Assembly: GCF_016026235.1 (NCBI RefSeq)
Contig: NZ_CP065613.1
Strand: one strand, 5' to 3'
Source: Escherichia coli
GTDB lineage: Bacteria; Pseudomonadota; Gammaproteobacteria; Enterobacterales; Enterobacteriaceae
DNA: 64,000 nt
Below, in pieces: positions 1 to 10,545 of the stretch. The translations under genes were made by a program, and so were the position numbers. A model generated the notes under the pieces. That model was given only the letters and a program-made list of their open reading frames with translations. It was not told the origin of the DNA and did no database searches. Every line of letters starts with the position of its first letter. Position 1 is the stretch's first letter.

Positions 1-97
1 AAAAAGGTAGCAATTGCGGCAAATTCACTTGCCGCATCTTTATCATCATTTTATATCCAGGCACAGGAACAAATAATATTGACAACGTGTGCTAAAA

Positions 98-856
98 TTA
101 CCACACCAGCTGGATATTATTGTCTTTGCAAAATGCTATCCACTCTGCACCCGGTGATTTATCAGTTATTATGTAATTAATATGACTAAAGTCAGCTAAC
201 TGAACAAAAGCTTTGCGATCAAACTTAGAGTGATCAACCAATAACGCAACTTCTGTCGCCTGACGGATCATTGTCTTTTTGATTTCAGCTTCCGCTTCAT
301 TAGAGTCCAGCGCGCCGCTGTTAATATCAAGACCTTTACAACTCATTACCATGATATCGACATGATAGCGGCTGATGATCTCTTTAGTAATTCTTCCTTG
401 CAGTGAAAGTGTATTTTTGTTTAGTTCCCCACCCGTTGAAACGACTTTAATTTCTGACTGAGCCAGAACATGAATCGCTTCCGCCGAGTTGGTTAGCAAC
501 GTCAGGTCACTACGGTCCTGTAACAATTTGAGCAATTCCATTACGGTACTACTGGAATCGGCTGCCATGGTGGTTTTATTGTCGATAAAGGGTAGTGCCT
601 TGCGTGCAATAAGCTGCTTCTCTTCATAAAACGATGAAGCGCGCTTATAAAAATGGATATTCTCCGTCAACATCGCTGTATTTAAAACAGCACCACCATA
701 GGTTCTGGTCAAAAAGCCTTCATCTTCCAGCTTCTCAAGATCGCGGCGAATGGTTTCTTCGGTTACCTGAAAAATCCCACTCAAATTTGAGACTGTCACC
801 TTTTTATCGTTGGCAACCATTTGCTTAATTGCCTGAATCCTGTCTTTTGCCGCCAC
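98..856 (-). CDS. ydjF: DeoR-family transcriptional regulator
   Basis: 252-aa ORF with N-terminal DeoR HTH and C-terminal sugar-binding domain; sits next to the ydjG-L sugar catabolic cluster. Confidence 0.9.
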   Translation of the reverse strand: MAAKDRIQAIKQMVANDKKVTVSNLSGIFQVTEETIRRDLEKLEDEGFLTRTYGGAVLNTAMLTENIHFYKRASSFYEEKQLIARKALPFIDNKTTMAADSSSTVMELLKLLQDRSDLTLLTNSAEAIHVLAQSEIKVVSTGGELNKNTLSLQGRITKEIISRYHVDIMVMSCKGLDINSGALDSNEAEAEIKKTMIRQATEVALLVDHSKFDRKAFVQLADFSHINYIITDKSPGAEWIAFCKDNNIQLVW

Positions 857-992
857 GATTACACCCCTGTATCTTTTTACATCACATTAGCGCGATTATC
901 GCATAACCGATGTTTACTTTCAAAATAACCTGTTTGAATCACAGATTTTCATCACGGTTTTCACAGAAACAGAGGTGAATCGTGTTGAGTAT

Positions 993-1973
993 TTAACGCT
1001 CCAGGGCCTCTGCCATTTCCCTCATCAATGTTGCGTCTGCATCCGATAAGTTGATATTCAGTGCCGCGACATTTTCGCGTACCTGTTGCGGTGCAGTAGC
1101 CCCACTAAGAATGGAGATTAAATCACTCTGTTTTAATATCCACGCCAGTGCCAGAGTGGGAATTGTGCACTGATAACGAGCACAAAGTGGCTGCCACTGT
1201 TCAAGCATATCAATCACTTTCAGCATGTTTTCACGCTGGAACCAGACTTTATTTGCCCGAGCGCCGCCCGGAACGTAATCACGAGTGATGGTGCCGGTCA
1301 ACAATCCCTGCTCTAGCGGGGAATAAACCTGAACCACAATGCCATTATCACGACATAGCGGCAGCAGTTCGTTTTCCATTGCCCGGTCGAGGATACTGTA
1401 TTTCGCCTGAATAATATCCAGTTCACCATATTGCAGATACTCGCGGATATGGTCGGCATCGACGTTAGCAGCGCCTATAGCGCGAATTTTCCCTTCAGCC
1501 TTTAACTCATTAAGCACTGCGACAGTTTCAGCGATCGGCGTATAAAATGGCGGCACCGACTGCCAGTGCGTCATGTAGATATCGATGTAATCAATACCCA
1601 GACGTTGCAAGCTGGCTTCTACCTCTTCGCGGATAGATTCCGGGGAAAGGTTTTTATACAACTGCCGATTGCCAACTTTGTTGAATAAACTTCCTTTTCG
1701 TTCCCAGACAATGCCGCATTTGGTTTCTACTACAACCTGTTCACGGGGCAGTTTTTTTAACGCCTGACCGACGATAACTTCACTATTGCCAAAGTTATAT
1801 CCTGGTGCAGTATCAATCAGGTTAATGCCGCAACGATGGGCTTCAAGAATCGTATCAATACATATTTGCCGATCGAGATCGCCATTCCATGCAGGACCGC
1901 CGCCAATGGCCCATGTCCCCAACCCCATTCGCGAAAGCGTAATATCCGTTGTGCCTAAAGGTATCTTTTTCAT
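993..1973 (-). CDS. ydjG: NADH-dependent aldo-keto reductase
   Basis: 326-aa ORF, aldo-keto reductase family; synteny. Confidence 0.9.
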   Translation of the reverse strand: MKKIPLGTTDITLSRMGLGTWAIGGGPAWNGDLDRQICIDTILEAHRCGINLIDTAPGYNFGNSEVIVGQALKKLPREQVVVETKCGIVWERKGSLFNKVGNRQLYKNLSPESIREEVEASLQRLGIDYIDIYMTHWQSVPPFYTPIAETVAVLNELKAEGKIRAIGAANVDADHIREYLQYGELDIIQAKYSILDRAMENELLPLCRDNGIVVQVYSPLEQGLLTGTITRDYVPGGARANKVWFQRENMLKVIDMLEQWQPLCARYQCTIPTLALAWILKQSDLISILSGATAPQQVRENVAALNINLSDADATLMREMAEALER

Positions 1974-2895
1974 TTGCCTTCATTATCCTTCGTATTCTTC
2001 CAGCAATTGTTCGACCAGCTTTCTGTTTTTTACGCCGGTGGTGGCACCGACGCTTAGAACCGAGATAGCCGCCGTTGCATTGGCAAAGCGTGCGCATTCA
2101 CGCAGATTTTTGCCTTCTAACAGTGCCGCAATAAAACCTGAAGCAAAGTTATCACCCGCGCCAATGGTGTCGATGGCGGTTATTCCTGCGACCGCCGGCA
2201 CCTTCATCGTCATGTCACCACGCTTGATAAAGCAGCCGTCTTTACCCGTTTTAATCACCACCGTTTTTACGCCGCACGCAAGAAAGCAGTCAGCAATTTC
2301 ATCCAGTGTCTCTTTCCCGGTGAGTAATTTTGCCTCGGCATAATTAGGAAACAGATAATCGACATAACTCAATGCTTCGCAAATATCATCCAGCGTTTCA
2401 TTCAACCGCGGTTTAATCATATCGGCACAGATAATCATCTGCCGGGCTTTAGCTTGCGTAAAAATTTCTGTTAGCGTTTTACCATCCAATAGTGGACTGT
2501 TGAAAATACTGGCCAGTGATAATAATTTCGCCTGGGAAAACCGAGCAAAATCAACATCGTCAATATTCAATTTCCACAGACTGCCGTTACGGTTTGTGAC
2601 AAACGTCCGCTCGCCATCCTCCGTCACCAGTCCAACATTAATAGAGGTATCTATGTTGACGTCCTGCTTCAGGCTTTGAATATCAATATTCTCTTTGCGG
2701 CAATGGTCGAGAATAAACTGCCCTGCGGCATCTTTACCAATACGGCTCATTAATGCTGTACGATGGCCCAGACGAGAAATAATTGTTGCTTCATTTATTG
2801 CATCACCCCCGGTGGTCATTGCGATTCTTTCAAGAGGATAAGAATCCACATCAAAGATATTTTTACTGACCGGTTGCAATGGAATATCAACAATA

Positions 2896-2904
2896 GCGGC
2901 ACCT
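2896..2904. repeat. IS1 target-site duplication GCGGCACCT (copy 1)
   Basis: Identical 9-mer immediately flanks both IS1 ends. Confidence 0.9.
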
Positions 2905-2919
2905 GGTAATGACTCCAAC

Positions 2920-3423
2920 TTACTGATAGTGTTTTATGTTCAGATAATGCCCGATGACCTTGTCATGCAGCTCCACCGATTTTGAGAACGACAGTGACTT
3001 CCGTCCCAGCCTTGCCAGATGTTGTCTCAGATTCAGATTATGTCGCTCAATGCGCTGAGTGTAACGCTTGCTGATAACGTGCAGCTTTCCCTTCAGGCGT
3101 GATTCATACAGCGGCCAGCCATCCGTCATCCATACCACGACCTCAAAGGCCGACAGCAGGCTCAGAAGACGCTCCAGTGTGGCCAGAGTGCGTTCACCGA
3201 AGACGTGCGCCACAACCGTCCTCCGTATCCTGTCATACGCGTAAAACAGCCAGCGCTGACGTGATTTAGCACCGACGTAGCCCCACTGTTCGTCCATTTC
3301 AGCGCAGACAATCACATCACTGCCCGGTTGTATGCGCGAGGTTACCGACTGCGGCCTGAGTTTTTTAAGTGACGTAAAACCGTGTTGAGGCCAACGCCCA
3401 TAATGCGTGCACTGGCGCGACAT
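2920..3423 (-). CDS. insB: IS1 transposase InsB' frame (made as InsAB' fusion by -1 frameshift)
   Basis: 167-aa ORF matching IS1 InsB; overlaps insA in the -1 frame. Confidence 0.9.
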
Positions 3424-3617
3424 CCGACGCCATTCATGGCCATATCAATGATTTTCTGGTGCGTACCGGGCTGAGAGGCGGTGTAAGTGAACTGTAGTTG
3501 CCATGTTTTACGGCAATGAGAGCAGAGATAGCGCTGATGTCCGGCAGTGCTTTTGCCGTTACGCACCACGCCTTCAGTAGCGGAGCAGGAAGGACATCTG
3601 ATGGAAATGGAAGCCAC
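3342..3617 (-). CDS. insA: IS1 InsA (transposition inhibitor / N-terminal part of transposase)
   Basis: 91-aa ORF with C4 zinc-finger motif CPSC...CSHC. Confidence 0.9.
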
Positions 3618-3672
3618 GCAAGCACCTTAAAATCACCATCATACACTAAATCAGTAAGTTGGCAGCATTACC

Positions 3673-3681
3673 GCGGCACCT
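3673..3681. repeat. IS1 target-site duplication GCGGCACCT (copy 2)
   Basis: Identical to 2896-2904. Confidence 0.9.
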
Positions 3682-3711
3682 ATACAAATAACGTCGAGAT
3701 TATCCATATCA

Positions 3712-4548
3712 TTATTCCGCTTTGCCATCAGAACCGAACAGTTTAATTTTTTCCAATGCCCGTTCTTTTACAGCTTTACGTACTTCACGTTCTAAATGCA
3801 GGAAAGGCTGATCCTGGTTTTCTTTCACTGCGACCATTGCGGCCTGACAGAGCTCAGTATGGATGTTGATTTTCGCGATACCCAACGAAATTGCAGTTTT
3901 AATGTCGGCATCACTGATCCCCGATGCGCCATGCAAAACCAGCGGAACAGACACGGCATCGCGTACGCGTTTGACGACCTCAAAGTTCAATTGTGGCTCT
4001 GACGTATAAACCCCATGCTGGTTGCCGATGGCGACAGCCAATGAGTCACAGCCCGTACGTTCAACAAATTCAGCCGCCTGGTCAGGATCGGTATAGTGAT
4101 AGCCCGCCAGCGCTTCCTCATAAACGGTTTCATTACCGACATGCCCTAATTCCGCCTCTACCGGAATACCCAGCGGATGGAAGAAATCGACAGCCTCTTT
4201 GGTTAAGCGAATATTTTCTTCGAAATCAAATGCGGAAGCATCACGCATTAATGAATTCATACCATGAGTCCAGGCGTTATGAATAATCTCCATACTCCGA
4301 CCATGATCCCAATGAGTTATTACCGGCACAGTTGCTTTTCGTGCCATTGATACCATCATGTGAGAGAAATCTTCAAATGAGGTGTTGCCGACAAAACCTG
4401 TGCCAAAAGAAATAATAACCGGTGATTTCGCTTCTTCGGCTGCGTCGATAACGCCCATCAACATTTCTGCATTCCATACGTTAAAATGGGCAATTGCATA
4501 ATGTTTATTTGTGGCATCGTTTTCCCAATATCTGATATCTGCGAGCAT
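3712..4548 (-). CDS. ydjI: class II aldolase (fructose-bisphosphate aldolase family)
   Basis: 278-aa ORF; synteny. Confidence 0.9.
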   Translation of the reverse strand: MLADIRYWENDATNKHYAIAHFNVWNAEMLMGVIDAAEEAKSPVIISFGTGFVGNTSFEDFSHMMVSMARKATVPVITHWDHGRSMEIIHNAWTHGMNSLMRDASAFDFEENIRLTKEAVDFFHPLGIPVEAELGHVGNETVYEEALAGYHYTDPDQAAEFVERTGCDSLAVAIGNQHGVYTSEPQLNFEVVKRVRDAVSVPLVLHGASGISDADIKTAISLGIAKINIHTELCQAAMVAVKENQDQPFLHLEREVRKAVKERALEKIKLFGSDGKAE

Positions 4549-4568
4549 GTTCTGTTCTCCCGTATTAA

Positions 4569-5612
4569 TTAATCGCTAATTTTAATAACGCCTTTAATAA
4601 TGTCGCGTTTGTTGTTAACCGACTCTTCAAATGCCTGTTGTACATCACGGTAATCGTAAATATGTGTCACCATCGATTTCACATCGAATCGCCCTGAAGA
4701 AATAGCTTCAATCGTGACCGGATAACGATTGGCATAGCGGAATACCGTCTGGATAGTGACTTCGCGATTGATTTTGAGGAAATTGATTGCCGAATCGCCG
4801 GGTACAGTACCAACAATCATAATTTTACCGCCGCGCATTACCAGATAAGGTGCCTGTTTAACGGTGACCGCAGAACCCGCTGTTTCGAAAACAATATCTG
4901 CGCCCATGTCTTCGGTAAATTGCTGACAGCGTGCAATAGTGTCTTCTTTTGCGCCGTTAATAACCACTGTCGCACCAAGCTGTTCCGCCATTGTCAGACG
5001 TTTTTCCAGCACATCAACGACGGCAATTTCCGTTGCTCCCAGGCATTTGCACGCTTGCAACGTCATCAAACCAATACAACCCGCTCCTAGAATAATTATC
5101 TTCTTACCCGGTTTAACATCTGCCAGCATCGCGGCATGCATCCCGACTGCGGCAGGCTCCACCAGCGCCCCTTCCATCGTGTCCATATTGTCGGGCAGTT
5201 TGTAAGTAAAGCTCTCCGGATGACACAGATAGTGCGTTAATGCGCCGCGGTAGTTGGGTTGTGTCGCCATAAAATCAACGTCCGGGCAGATGTTATATTT
5301 GCCTTCCAGACAGTAACGACAGTGACCGCAAGGAACGCCAGGTTCGATATTTACCCGATCCCCCGGTTTAAATTTGCGCACGCGGCTTCCCACAGCCACA
5401 ACCGTCCCGGCGCATTCATGACCCTGGCCAATTTCTTGATTTGGGTCTTTAGGCGGAATAAACGGACCTGATTCAAAACCATGTACATCTGAACCACAAA
5501 TACCGACATATTCTACTTTAATCAAAACTTCATCTTCTTTAGGCACTGGTATTTCTGCTGAAATAATTTTCATTGTGCCCGGCACCTGCAATATTGCTTT
5601 TGAATTTTTCAT
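4569..5612 (-). CDS. ydjJ: Zn-dependent alcohol/sugar dehydrogenase
   Basis: 347-aa ORF; MDR family with GHE and Cys-rich structural zinc motif. Confidence 0.9.
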   Translation of the reverse strand: MKNSKAILQVPGTMKIISAEIPVPKEDEVLIKVEYVGICGSDVHGFESGPFIPPKDPNQEIGQGHECAGTVVAVGSRVRKFKPGDRVNIEPGVPCGHCRYCLEGKYNICPDVDFMATQPNYRGALTHYLCHPESFTYKLPDNMDTMEGALVEPAAVGMHAAMLADVKPGKKIIILGAGCIGLMTLQACKCLGATEIAVVDVLEKRLTMAEQLGATVVINGAKEDTIARCQQFTEDMGADIVFETAGSAVTVKQAPYLVMRGGKIMIVGTVPGDSAINFLKINREVTIQTVFRYANRYPVTIEAISSGRFDVKSMVTHIYDYRDVQQAFEESVNNKRDIIKGVIKISD

Positions 5613-5628
5613 TTTGAATCCACCCGTA

Positions 5629-7008
5629 TTATTTATTGGCTACTGCATCAATACTTAAACTTTCAACGGAGACACCTTTGGTTTCGATTCCAATGGTGGC
5701 GATAGCAATTGCGACAATAATTGAAACCGCCCCCAGAAGAATAAAGACTCCCGTAACGCCATAACTACTGAGCAGCACTGCAACGGCATAAGGTGCGGCA
5801 ATACCACTGATTCGCCCTACCGCATTCGCCAGACCGGAGCCACGGAGTTTGGCCTCTGTCGGCCAGATCTCAGGGACATACACTGCCGAGGCATAGCAAA
5901 CGTACATATAGACGAAAGTAATCAGGAAGAAACCAATCAACGTTATGAGCAACATGCTGGTTTGCAGTGAATAGATATATCCGAGCACCGCAATCAGGAT
6001 TAATAGCCCCACACCCATTGTTTTACGCGGAATTTTATCCATCACCAGCATGGCAATAAAAATGCCAAATGGCGCGCCAAACATACTCATGGTATTTAAA
6101 ACAATCGAGTCTTTTAAATTAATCCCCTGGGTCATGAATATCGTTGGCAACCAGTTAATTAGTGTGTACTGCACAACGTTCATGGCAATCAGCACACAAG
6201 AGCCTAATATCACGCGTTTCAGTAATACTCCTGTCAGTAAGGCTGAATACGGCACCGCTTGTGGCGTTTTACCGTCATCAGCAATAACCACGGGCGGCAA
6301 AGGTTTGCCCGTCTGGTGTATGACGCCTTCTTCTATACTCCGCATGACTTTCTCGGCTTCCTGATACCGTCCGCGCGATTCCAGCCAGCGCGGGGATTCA
6401 GGAAAGTAGCGCCAGGCCAGCGCCGTAGCGATAAGCGACAATATTGCAGGGATAAGCAGTTGTACCCGCCAGTTCCACTCTGCACTAATCAGCGGCGTGA
6501 GTCCCATCGCTATCAATGAACAGAGCGGATATGACCAGTTGCCAATAAAGGAAACCCGACTTGACCACGTTCCACGATTTCTACCGGGCATATATTCGGT
6601 GAAACCAGCAAACAGCGTAACCAGTAAAGCTCCCAGCCCAACTCCCATCACAAAACGGCAGGCAATAAGGAAATCCATATTCGGTGAGAAAGCACCGACA
6701 ACCATCGAGGCAATATGAATGGCCTCATAGAGGATGAACGCATTTCTGCGACCGGTTTTGTCGCCAATGATGCCGCCCACCAGCGCACCGAGAAACATTC
6801 CGGCGGTCGTGATTGCTGAGAATGTGGCTGTGGTGGAATTATCTGTCCAGCCCAACGCTTTCAGCTGCGCGAGGATCAAGCCACCAACGGCATTACTCCA
6901 GCAGACAAGCAAGCCAAACGCGACGATGGCAAACATTGACGAATGCCAGCGGCAATCCGGTAAGCGATCCAGCCGTGCACCACAATGCGGTTTTGTTATC
7001 TGTTCCAT
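5629..7008 (-). CDS. ydjK: MFS sugar transporter
   Basis: 459-aa polytopic membrane ORF; synteny. Confidence 0.9.
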   Translation of the reverse strand: MEQITKPHCGARLDRLPDCRWHSSMFAIVAFGLLVCWSNAVGGLILAQLKALGWTDNSTTATFSAITTAGMFLGALVGGIIGDKTGRRNAFILYEAIHIASMVVGAFSPNMDFLIACRFVMGVGLGALLVTLFAGFTEYMPGRNRGTWSSRVSFIGNWSYPLCSLIAMGLTPLISAEWNWRVQLLIPAILSLIATALAWRYFPESPRWLESRGRYQEAEKVMRSIEEGVIHQTGKPLPPVVIADDGKTPQAVPYSALLTGVLLKRVILGSCVLIAMNVVQYTLINWLPTIFMTQGINLKDSIVLNTMSMFGAPFGIFIAMLVMDKIPRKTMGVGLLILIAVLGYIYSLQTSMLLITLIGFFLITFVYMYVCYASAVYVPEIWPTEAKLRGSGLANAVGRISGIAAPYAVAVLLSSYGVTGVFILLGAVSIIVAIAIATIGIETKGVSVESLSIDAVANK

Positions 7009-7034
7009 GCGATAACGTTCCTTCAGGAAAGTTG

Positions 7035-8111
7035 TTATTCATCAAAGTCGTAAGTCATGATCACTTTGATTGCGGTTTTATCGACCATCGCATCAAACCC
7101 TTCGCGCCATTGCGACAGGCCGATACGATGCGTGATCATCGGTTTGACTTTGATAGCGCCGCTGACTAATAGCCTGATAGCGTTACGCCATGAGGTGGAG
7201 TCATAGGCCATATGCCCAATGATGCTTTTGTTCCAGGCGGTAATGTCATTAATCGAGAAATCAAGAGGTTTGAAGCCCATTCCAACGCGTACCACTTCCC
7301 CGTTCGGGCGGAGCATTTCGATGGCTTGTTTCAGTGCGATATTGGCACCGGAGCATTCAATCACCAGTCCCAGATTGTCTTTTCCACAAATTTGCTGGCA
7401 GCGCGCCACCACATCTTCGGTAGAACCATTTACTACTGCCGTCGCACCCAGTTCTTTTGCAACCGGGAAGCGGACCGCCACATCTTCTTGCAGACCAACG
7501 ACGACGATATTTACCGCCCCCATAATTCGCGCCATTTGTACGGAGAACAGCCCGAGTGGGCCAGTGCCGATGACGACCACATCCTGACCAGGAAGGAATT
7601 TCGATTGCTGCGCGATGGATTTGTAGGCATTACAGATAGGGTCAAGTACGGCTGCGTCCTCATAATCAACACCATCAGGGATTTCCCACAACGCATGACG
7701 ATGAATTTTGAGAATTTCACCAGGAACCAGACAATATTTGGAAAAACCACCGCCCCAGGTATTATTATCCAGACCAAGGTTTACTTTTTCTGTACAACAC
7801 AGAAAATCACCTTGTTCACAGGCCGGACAAACGCCGCAAACGTGACCGCTGTTATCCGATACGACGCGTTGCCCCACTTTCCAGTCTTTGACTTTTTCAC
7901 CAACCTGCGCAATACAACCTGCGAACTCATGGCCGCGGATAGAGTTAAACTCATCAGAACCGCTATCGACATTGTAGTGCTTCATGTCTGCGCCGCAGAT
8001 TGCCGCGGCTTTAATTTCAATCACTACATCTTCCGGGCCACACATGGGTTGTGGGACATCAATCATCTTGTAGCCGCCAAAGGCTTTGCCAAACCGAGCC
8101 AGTGCTTTCAT
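7035..8111 (-). CDS. ydjL: Zn-dependent dehydrogenase
   Basis: 358-aa MDR-family ORF; first gene of the ydjLKJIHG cluster. Confidence 0.9.
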   Translation of the reverse strand: MKALARFGKAFGGYKMIDVPQPMCGPEDVVIEIKAAAICGADMKHYNVDSGSDEFNSIRGHEFAGCIAQVGEKVKDWKVGQRVVSDNSGHVCGVCPACEQGDFLCCTEKVNLGLDNNTWGGGFSKYCLVPGEILKIHRHALWEIPDGVDYEDAAVLDPICNAYKSIAQQSKFLPGQDVVVIGTGPLGLFSVQMARIMGAVNIVVVGLQEDVAVRFPVAKELGATAVVNGSTEDVVARCQQICGKDNLGLVIECSGANIALKQAIEMLRPNGEVVRVGMGFKPLDFSINDITAWNKSIIGHMAYDSTSWRNAIRLLVSGAIKVKPMITHRIGLSQWREGFDAMVDKTAIKVIMTYDFDE

Positions 8112-8189
8112 TGCGTCATCCTCTGTGTTTTGTTTTGCTTAGATGGTCATCATACTTACCCACATGATTTTTGAGGTCAACATTAAATC

Positions 8190-8221
8190 TGTAAAACACA
8201 GATAATGATCTGCGTTTTACA
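8190..8221. promoter_or_regulatory. 32-bp near-perfect palindrome upstream of ydjL (candidate operator)
   Basis: TGTAAAACACAGATAATGATCTGCGTTTTACA, 28 of 32 positions dyad-symmetric, about 80 bp upstream of the ydjL start. Confidence 0.3.
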
Positions 8222-8480
8222 ACTCAGATCACAATTACGCAGAAAATGGCTGGTTCTGTTACAGGTTGATGGAAGGCTGAACGCAAAAGGAGCAAATTTG
8301 AGAGGGATTACCGGCCAAATAGGTCTGAGACTTAAGTTCAGGAGAAGTCATTCAAGCGTGAACGCGACGGCAAGAGACCGGGCTGGGGCTTTGCCTGGTC
8401 GTGACGAGATAATTGAGATGAGTCGTGGGGTTATTGTTGGCTATCCCCTTTATAACCGCGGCAAAAAGGGGACAAACCAC

Positions 8481-8753
8481 TTACTTAAACATGGCAATAG
8501 GCTTTGCTGAGATACCAAAATCTTCTTTTAACTGTTGTTTGCTCTTCATGACCATCTGACCATTTGTGTCAATTGTCATATGCTGTGCTTCGGTATTATT
8601 GCGGGCTTGCCACAGCATCACCAGTTGCAGGCAGTTCTCTTTTTGTTCCTCGGTCAACGCAACGCCATCAGGCCATTTCCCCAGTTCAACGGCGGTCGAC
8701 AAACGCTGGTATACCTCAGGCGTCATGCTGTTGATAATGTCATCAAGATTCAT
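8481..8753 (-). CDS. yeaC: DUF1315 protein YeaC
   Basis: ORF in track is 105 aa; start placed at MNLDD to match the 90-aa K-12 protein. Confidence 0.8.
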   Translation of the reverse strand: MNLDDIINSMTPEVYQRLSTAVELGKWPDGVALTEEQKENCLQLVMLWQARNNTEAQHMTIDTNGQMVMKSKQQLKEDFGISAKPIAMFK

Positions 8754-8794
8754 AATTTTTCCGCTCCTGTGGAATAAGTTGCTGAATCGTTTTT

Positions 8795-9208
8795 TCAACC
8801 GTTGATTTCTTCGCCGTTTTCGCCATCAGTGAAGCGTAAAGAAGCAGAGTTAACACAATAACGTTCGCCTGTTGGTTGCGGCCCGTCGGGAAAGACATGC
8901 CCCAGATGGGCATCACAGTTACCGCAACGAATTTCTATGCGCTGCATTCCATGTGACAAGTCTTTGATATAACGAATGGATTCTTCACTCACCGGTTCGT
9001 AGAAACTGGGCCAGCCACAGCCGGAATCATACTTGGTTTCGGAATGAAACAGCGGGGCATCGCAGATCAAACAGTGATATACGCCGTCACGCTTGTTATG
9101 CAGTAAACGACCCGTAAATGGCGGTTCTGTCCCATGATTCTGCGTCACGTAAAACTGCATCTCGGACAAATTTTTTTTCAGTTCTTCTGCCGAAGGTTTA
9201 TTAGCCAT
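8795..9208 (-). CDS. msrB: methionine-R-sulfoxide reductase MsrB
   Basis: CxxC...CxxC zinc motifs; start placed at [10 protein letters not shown] (137 aa). Confidence 0.9.

Positions 9209-9537: not shown

Positions 9538-10545
<1,008 letters not shown>

Follow-up and report, generated by a model that had tools for sequence, protein, structure and literature searches.

We propose that a 32-bp near-palindrome in the spacer between yeaC and ydjL of an Escherichia coli genome (RefSeq assembly GCF_016026235.1, contig NZ_CP065613.1) is likely a pair of operators for YdjF, the DeoR-family regulator encoded by the ydj cluster itself, within an array of several operators. The element (TGTAAAACACAGATAATGATCTGCGTTTTACA) occupies positions 8190-8221 of the 64,000-nucleotide stretch that was analysed, hereafter the window. 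The spacer, 369 bp long, separates yeaC (8481-8753 in RefSeq) from ydjL, the first gene of the ydjLKJIHGF cluster, whose genes are all on the - strand with ydjF at the far end. The first-pass annotation had regarded the palindrome, described as symmetric at 28 of 32 positions and ~80 bp upstream of the cluster's first gene ydjL, as a plausible operator for the cluster's regulator, with YdjF as one candidate. Comparison with the reverse complement and the gene order confirmed this description, the dyad beginning 79 bp upstream of the ydjL ATG, and the proposal itself is supported by our analysis, the linkage to ydjF pointing to YdjF as the binding protein. Two refinements are suggested by the alignments: the conserved unit is a 17-bp palindrome, the 32-bp dyad being two such boxes placed head to head, and further candidate boxes are found within ydjL and before ydjF. 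YdjF would probably act as a repressor.

The ydj operon is a poorly understood and horizontally mobile sugar-acid pathway, annotated in RefSeq as an octuluronate kinase/aldolase pathway in which YdjH is the L-glycero-L-galacto-octuluronate kinase. YdjF carries an HTH_DeoR domain (PF08220, at 2.9e-17) and a DeoRC domain (PF00455, at 2.4e-49), and has been listed among the uncharacterised regulators (PMC4797297). The ydjL promoter was reported to be active in the mouse gut and inactive in culture (PMC6561318).

Within the dyad, 14 of the 16 pairs match, the mismatched ones being 8198/8213 and 8204/8207, and two arms of 14 nt (8190-8203 and 8208-8221), complementary at 93%, are separated by 4 nt. 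No other 32-bp dyad with two or fewer mismatched pairs exists in the window, none arose in 30 shuffles, and ~0.02 are expected analytically per 64 kb. The dyad is unchanged in K-12 MG1655 (NC_000913.3, 1861411-1861442) and identical in E. whittamii. Direct alignment of divergent E. coli alleles, the most divergent of those sampled included, showed that all 32 positions are kept while flanking intergenic positions vary; the window itself carries rare alleles in a control segment considered for comparison with the 70-bp operator region. Within the genus, the dyad was seen to differ only in Escherichia sp. E1V33, where a C of the box 2 arm is replaced by A. Moreover, each of the 4208 E. coli genomes having the 70-bp operator region contains it exactly once.

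Phylogenetic footprinting of the ydjL upstream regions, the check suggested by the first-pass annotation, gave a positive result. A scan for YdjL with one genome per species recovered the complete ydjLKJIHGF cluster from many genera, and the 190 bp upstream of ydjL were aligned for 17 genera or species (from Escherichia to Serratia, Budvicia, Enterobacillus, and Symbiopectobacterium). The distal part of this alignment is unconserved and is followed by a single strongly conserved block including the dyad, which reads in the ydjL orientation TTTGTGATCTgAG-TTGTgAAAtGCAGATCa-ttATCTGTGTTTTAaAGATTT-aatG-TTGACC-N17-AAGTAT, then the Shine-Dalgarno sequence and the ATG. The best-conserved element is the promoter-proximal half, termed here box 2, rather than the whole 32-bp dyad. 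The exact pattern of box 2, ATCTGTNNNNNACAGAT, has a single match in the window, and its palindrome is free of mismatches in E. coli, E. whittamii, Symbiopectobacterium, Enterobacillus, and Serratia. The distal box 1 is kept in Enterobacteriaceae, and in Serratia a box in direct orientation (ATCTGCGAAACAAATAA) stands in its place, with the 21-bp offset unchanged. The near-perfect symmetry over 32 bp is specific to Escherichia, with 13 of 14 Watson-Crick arm pairs versus 5 to 12 of 14 in the other genera. Since the centres of box 1 and box 2 are 21 bp apart, the two boxes would lie on the same face of the helix.

The conserved block also contains the predicted ydjL promoter, which thus adjoins the dyad rather than lying elsewhere. 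Across the 17 genera, the TTGA of the -35 hexamer is invariant and the following C is at least 90% conserved. The position of the -10 hexamer is taken by AATTAT in Serratia and Enterobacillus and by GATAAT in UBA3516; TTGAC-N17-(A/G)A(G/T)(T/A)AT is a plausible sigma-70 promoter. An alternative pair, TTTACA-17-AAAAAT, with its -35 inside box 2, came top of a simple promoter scan in E. coli; it is not conserved outside Escherichia, and we regard it as a secondary possibility. Upstream of box 1, a TGTGATC motif is conserved among the 17 Enterobacterales, with TGTGA and the final C invariant and the remaining T at least 90% conserved, and is absent from the Gram-positive loci described below. Two identities are conceivable for it, an additional half-site for YdjF or a CRP half-site with its centre near -81. 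In the sequence TGTGATCTGAGTTGTA beside the dyad, the left CRP half is perfect and the right half (TTGTA) agrees with the consensus at 2 of 5 positions. A similar extra TCTG-N3/4-TGTG arrangement precedes the distal box of the ydjF promoter.

The evidence that carries the proposal furthest comes from outside the Enterobacterales. The seven-gene cluster was also found in Lachnospiraceae, Eubacteriaceae, Ruminococcus, Anaerococcus, Megamonas, and one Atopobiaceae genome, with YdjL 77 to 85% and YdjF 41 to 56% identical to the E. coli proteins, and this presence in distant Gram-positives implies transfer between phyla. Enterococcus alishanensis carries the ydj cluster as well (loci L023 to L042 and L046, taken together with those of the Clostridia and the other groups). 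An orthologue of YdjF is present in every complete cluster found, in three phyla, and is the only regulator consistently linked to it. Most Gram-positive versions retaining ydjK have an extra gene of ~230 amino acids between ydjL and ydjK, which is absent from Enterobacterales and which in locus L037 matches the ribulose-phosphate 3-epimerase family.

Upstream of the Gram-positive ydjL genes, two to three repeats with 20- to 21-bp spacing lie just upstream of near-consensus promoters, for instance TTCTGTGAAACACAGAA (L037), ATCTGCGAAACAGACAA (L024), and ATCTGTAAAACAGAAAT (L038). An expectation-maximization motif search in 12 nonredundant Gram-positive ydjL upstream regions, seeded from those alone with no enterobacterial sequence, converged on CTKTGAAACAnAnAAAA. 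The resulting position weight matrix (PWM) was run on both strands of the ~20-kb enterobacterial loci, that is, ~40,000 positions each. In the E. coli window it ranked box 2 first, and box 1 or box 2 came among the top three positions in 12 of the 17 loci and among the top five in 14. No E. coli sequence went into this test, and its outcome is our main ground for regarding the element as a specific protein-binding site that moves with the cluster. A joint scan for promoter and boxes recovered a layout shared by loci ranging from E. coli to Clostridia and Atopobiaceae: counted from the first base of the -35 hexamer, one box starts 23 to 24 nt and a second 44 nt upstream. In nearly all loci a box ends 6 to 7 nt upstream of the -35, and in several a weak third copy overlaps the -35. 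In Megamonas, the ydjL upstream region has a consensus TTGACA-17-TATTAT promoter, and downstream of its -10 are two ATGTTT-N5-AAACAT palindromes (L040, ~9948-9985) at a distance of 21 bp; these share the 6-5-6 geometry of the E. coli boxes and differ in arm sequence and position. The YdjF recognition helix TEETIRRDL is nearly identical across clades, Megamonas included (VTPETIRRDL in L025 and L036). The Megamonas boxes differ while the helix hardly does, and there is therefore no covariation of specificity.

A third candidate operator was found inside ydjL. This box, 14 of 17 positions identical to box 2, is in the same orientation and 399 bp away, and the Gram-positive PWM ranked it first or second of the ~40,000 positions in all 17 Enterobacterales loci. 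Its codons encode D-F-L-C-C-T-E-K and are almost frozen across 25 enterobacterial sequences: GAT, TTT, the first TGT, ACA, and GAA are invariant, whereas free variation is seen in the neighbouring codons for Cys, Gly, Val, Leu, and Asn. ACA is normally a rare codon. The synonymous-codon entropy of the seven-codon window starting at codon 102 is 0.17 bits versus a mean of 1.04 bits, the lowest of 347 such windows. In the Gram-positive orthologues the box is absent, a nearly identical peptide being specified by different codons. The intragenic box is thus a candidate intragenic operator, maybe acting by looping; the codon constraint may instead act at the RNA level.

Boxes were also found at the regulator gene. 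In the ydjG-ydjF spacer, box F2 follows the consensus ATCTGTGATTCA(A/G)ACA(G/T), and its spacing to the -35 is as at ydjL; the more distal box F1 has a good left arm only. The promoter that follows, exactly TTGAAA-17-GATAAT, was reported by Shimada et al. as a constitutive sigma-70 ydjF promoter in genomic SELEX (systematic evolution of ligands by exponential enrichment) with RNA polymerase alone (PMC3946193). Among the Gram-positive loci, boxes upstream of ydjF are clear in L038 only; control of ydjF by its own product may thus be confined to Enterobacterales. LexA chromatin immunoprecipitation on chip (ChIP-chip) data led to the proposal of a degenerate LexA-like site, CCCTGTATCTTTTTACATCA, in the 5' region of ydjF (PMC3542263); it matches the 5' untranslated region (UTR) of ydjF at ~868-887, as estimated by eye, and is unrelated to the dyad. 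Coordinates of all features are collected in Table 1.

Table 1. Positions in the window of the predicted operator boxes, promoter elements, and genes of the ydj cluster
Feature	Positions	Strand	Basis or remark
32-bp near-palindrome: inner 14 nt of each box (1 and 2) with the 4-nt spacer between them	8190..8221		28/32 symmetry
Box 2, promoter-proximal, perfect 6-5-6 palindrome ATCTGT AAAAC ACAGAT (+ strand)	8187..8203		centre ~-50 from predicted start
Box 1, distal, weaker, AGTTGTAAAACGCAGAT in ydjL orientation	8208..8224		9/12 arm positions match
Predicted ydjL -35 TTGACC, 6 nt downstream of box 2	8175..8180	-	conserved in 17 genera
Predicted ydjL -10 AAGTAT, 17-nt spacer; predicted start near 8145 (K-12 1861366)	8152..8157	-	alignment
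TGTGATC upstream of box 1, may be CRP half-site or extra YdjF half-site	8227..8233	-	conserved in 17 Enterobacterales
Intragenic box TTCTGTGTTGTACAGAA (ydjL orientation), candidate looping operator	7788..7804		ydjL codons 102-107, nt +305..+321
Box F2 ATCTGTGATTCAAACAG, ydjG-ydjF spacer	930..946	-	ends 6 nt upstream of ydjF -35; conserved in 15 Enterobacterales
Box F1 TTCTGTGAAAACCGTGA, half-box (good left arm only), 22 bp upstream of F2	952..968	-	sequence
ydjF promoter TTGAAA-N17-GATAAT	895..923	-	sequence; matches SELEX-listed hexamers
ydjL, first gene of the regulated operon	7035..8111	-	open reading frame and RefSeq name
ydjF, DeoR-family regulator (HTH_DeoR and DeoRC), putative binding protein	98..856	-	domain match; orthologue in every complete cluster found

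Altogether, the features expected of a DeoR-family operator are found at the level of sequence: a linked regulator, a symmetric site at the promoter, multiple operators, and co-occurrence across taxa. We propose a model in which each 17-bp ATCTGT-N5-ACAGAT box would presumably be bound by one YdjF dimer, with box 2 at ~-50 and box 1 at ~-71 from the predicted ydjL start. Without inducer, YdjF oligomers would occupy the boxes cooperatively and keep ydjLKJIHG and ydjF expression low. Repression could proceed by blocking upstream contacts of RNA polymerase or the possible CRP site at TGTGATC, by looping to the intragenic box, or by cooperative spreading onto the weak third box over the -35. By analogy with the DeoR family, the effector would be a phosphorylated intermediate of the pathway, the product of the YdjH kinase being the most plausible one; it would bind the DeoRC domain and free the repressor. 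Promoter activity off in culture and on in the mouse gut fits what is expected of such an inducer-controlled operon.

Several points weigh against this model. Neither electrophoretic mobility shift, footprint, chromatin immunoprecipitation, SELEX, nor genetic data for YdjF at the dyad were found in the searchable literature, where YdjF is named only among uncharacterised regulators. The boxes lie upstream of the -35 without overlapping it, and a strictly conserved distance between box and -35 is more typical of activators than of repressors. A coordinate search, possibly incomplete, of the Cappable-seq (PMC4782308) and SMRT-Cappable-seq (PMC6131387) supplements returned no entry for a ydjL start site, and the promoter therefore remains a prediction; the missing proximal start in the two supplements may be due to a promoter silent in culture. 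Adams et al. cloned the ydjL 5' UTR from a start inside yeaC (window 8588; bioRxiv 10.1101/2020.07.18.207399). In the most distant genera the conservation of box 1 is poor, and the number of matches to the box pattern with up to two mismatches in the window is no higher than chance, so that only their location is unusual. Finally, the architecture shared across phyla could come partly from common descent by horizontal transfer and not from independent selection.

The first alternative keeps the same boxes and the same protein, with YdjF as an activator: a dimer near -50, and a second at -71, would recruit RNA polymerase when bound by the inducer, as a class I activator does, or FucR within the DeoR family. 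Box positions clear of both the -35 and the -10, the 6- to 7-nt distance to the -35 that nearly every locus keeps, in Clostridia as well as in E. coli, and that recurs at ydjF, the weak AAGTAT -10 of E. coli ydjL, and the silence of this promoter in culture (PMC6561318) are all consistent with activation. Repression is nevertheless favoured because the near-consensus -35/-10 pairs of the Gram-positive promoters should need no activation, because RNA polymerase binds the ydjF promoter, where the box geometry is the same, without help in SELEX, and because the Megamonas palindromes lie downstream of the -10. The weak third box over the -35 in several loci also speaks against an activator. Moreover, most characterised DeoR-family proteins are repressors. 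Altogether, we consider activation by YdjF unlikely, though the likeliest of the alternatives; its strongest argument is the constancy of the distance from box to -35.

A more ambitious reading of the same data is tentative, and we hold it possible rather than probable. It would see YdjF control the operon through a three-point architecture kept across phyla, made of two tandem 17-bp boxes at a fixed distance upstream of the -35 and, in Enterobacterales, of a third operator written into the codons of the Cys-rich motif of YdjL, whose codon choice would have been held constant to preserve the box, with a loop of ~400 bp enclosing the promoter, or else would take the fixed -50 position as the mark of an activator.

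At the RNA level, the dyad could form a hairpin in read-through transcripts coming from yeaC and serve as a secondary terminator or insulator, or as an attenuator in the ydjL 5' UTR. The ydjL-sense RNA does fold into 14 to 19 bp (-18.2 kcal/mol, z = -4.5) followed by AUUUAAUGUU, was terminator-like in a consensus scan, and keeps, with G-U pairs, 12 to 14 of 14 stem pairs in Citrobacter, Klebsiella, and Raoultella. A start inside yeaC and Rho-dependent termination in ydjL have also been reported (bioRxiv 10.1101/2020.07.18.207399). The forward primer used by Adams et al. for the ydjL 5' UTR maps to 8568-8588 on the - strand, inside yeaC, which implies a start inside yeaC reading across the dyad into ydjL, and the reported Rho-dependent termination lies within ydjL at K-12 position 1861188, ~7967 of the window (bioRxiv 10.1101/2020.07.18.207399). 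Read-through transcripts containing the dyad therefore exist, and a minor RNA-level role for it may be considered.

Nevertheless, as an explanation of the dyad we find the hairpin improbable. In the 17-genus alignment there is no covariation: 82.8% of the cells are paired versus 83.6% in column shuffles, and double-sided changes number 1 versus a shuffled mean of 1.7. Only 4 of the 15 stem pairs are G-C and the tail AUUUAAUGUU is U-poor. The Term-seq 3' end of yeaC lies ~213 nt upstream in the transcript (K-12 1861655, window 8434), and Adams et al. report no detectable ydjL 3' end in their dataset from lysogeny broth at an optical density of 0.4 (bioRxiv 10.1101/2020.07.18.207399). The operon's own mRNA, started at the predicted ydjL promoter, would begin downstream of the dyad and not contain it. 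The Gram-positive loci use direct rather than inverted repeats, and the boxes at ydjF and inside ydjL would be left unexplained. An intrinsic terminator was rejected on the G+C-poor stem, the U-poor tail, the lack of a detectable ydjL 3' end in Term-seq, and the lack of covariation. No Rfam 15 family matched at E <= 1 on either strand of 8050-8850. A G+C-rich hairpin (CCCCTTTTTGCC..GGGG, - strand) is found at 8446-8471, 10 nt past the yeaC stop, with the Term-seq 3' end of yeaC (~8434) just downstream; this hairpin, and not the dyad, is the yeaC terminator.

We also considered that a global or unrelated regulator such as CRP, TyrR, or LexA binds the boxes in place of YdjF, which appears very improbable. 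The outer hexamers TGTAAA/TTTACA do resemble TyrR-box half-sites, the boxes hold CTGT..ACAG and, in other genera, TGTGA, the invariant TGTGATC adjoins box 1, and CRP genomic SELEX lists ydjF among the predicted targets, though not at the dyad (PMC3105977). Each consensus failed on its spacing or on the quality of a half-site. A TyrR box needs TGTAAA-N6-TTTACA where the spacer here is N20 (8196-8215), and a LexA box needs CTGT-N8-ACAG where box 2 has CTGT-N5-ACAG. For CRP, no TGTGA-N6-TCACA exists in the dyad, the best match within 8190-8221 being TGTAA-N6-GATCA. The predicted GalR site lies in ydjI and not at the dyad (PMC5110547). The motif is kept in Firmicutes and Atopobiaceae, always together with a YdjF orthologue. 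To our knowledge, these enterobacterial regulators do not occur in Firmicutes and Atopobiaceae. Last, many palindromes of the repetitive extragenic (REP) type lie in E. coli intergenic regions, and a chance palindrome or a functionless copy of such an element has a negligible probability given the shuffles and the expectation reported above, the conservation across genera, and the single location of the 70-bp region per genome in 4208 genomes, so that it is not a repetitive element (REP or bacterial interspersed mosaic element).

In kind, the dyad is an ordinary operator array of a DeoR-type sugar regulator. Like E. coli DeoR, YdjF combines HTH_DeoR and DeoRC domains and would act on short, perfectly palindromic operators. 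The deo operator is a 16-bp TGTTAGAA-TTCTAACA sequence overlapping -10 regions and present as O1, O2, and OE. In deo, operators hundreds of bp apart cooperate through oligomers and looping, with a sugar-phosphate effector, and the model for ydj is similar; unlike deo, the ydj box is a 17-bp ATCTGT-N5-ACAGAT located upstream of the -35, two of them in tandem 21 bp apart. The operators of GlpR at the glpD promoter cover the -10 and the start site. GlpR at E. coli glpD, also of the DeoR family, offers tandem operators in helical repeat and intragenic operators proposed to loop, whereas the ydjL intragenic box is predicted from motif identity and synonymous constraint. The DeoR-type repressor FruR of the Lactococcus lactis fru operon likewise uses adjacent promoter-side repeats, is released by the kinase product fructose-1-phosphate, and has an operator conserved with its regulator across Firmicutes. 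Its repeats are of 10 bp, unlike the ydj boxes, which are 17-bp pseudopalindromes at 21-bp spacing. Should TGTGATC be a CRP site at about -81, the anti-activation of deoP2 by CytR and CRP would apply: a repressor lying between CRP and RNA polymerase blocks activation and leaves the core promoter untouched. CytR is a LacI-family protein that contacts CRP directly, and the second CRP half-site at ydjL is poor. No description of the box sequence, its geometry, the intragenic copy, or the cross-phylum conservation was found in the searchable literature.

The cluster itself is an accessory island in E. coli. The ydjE-ydjL block (window ~1-8480) is missing from 1218 of 5426 complete E. coli genomes (~22%), in which pncA directly adjoins yeaC (locus L060). 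In the strain analysed here, an IS1 copy lies at 2906-3673, near the 5' end of ydjH, with an open reading frame (2920-3423) matching DDE_Tnp_IS1, terminal inverted repeats GGTAATGACTCCAACTTACTGAT and ATCAGTAAGTTGGCAGCATTACC, and a 9-bp target duplication GCGGCACCT at 2897-2905 and 3673-3681. This IS1 is inside ydjH, and the ydj operon is therefore disrupted in this strain. FDAARGOS_943, whose ydjL upstream region is 100% identical, has IS1 in ydjK and between ydjF and ydjE instead.

Our study proposes an operator model that gives a box sequence, five box positions, a promoter, and a candidate intragenic operator, and that makes the regulation of the operon directly testable. The model is also a handle on the natural inducer, and it would allow the rational engineering of the ydjL promoter as a gut-responsive biosensor. 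Beyond E. coli, the conservation of promoter and operators across phyla neatly illustrates how a regulatory module can move together with its operon.

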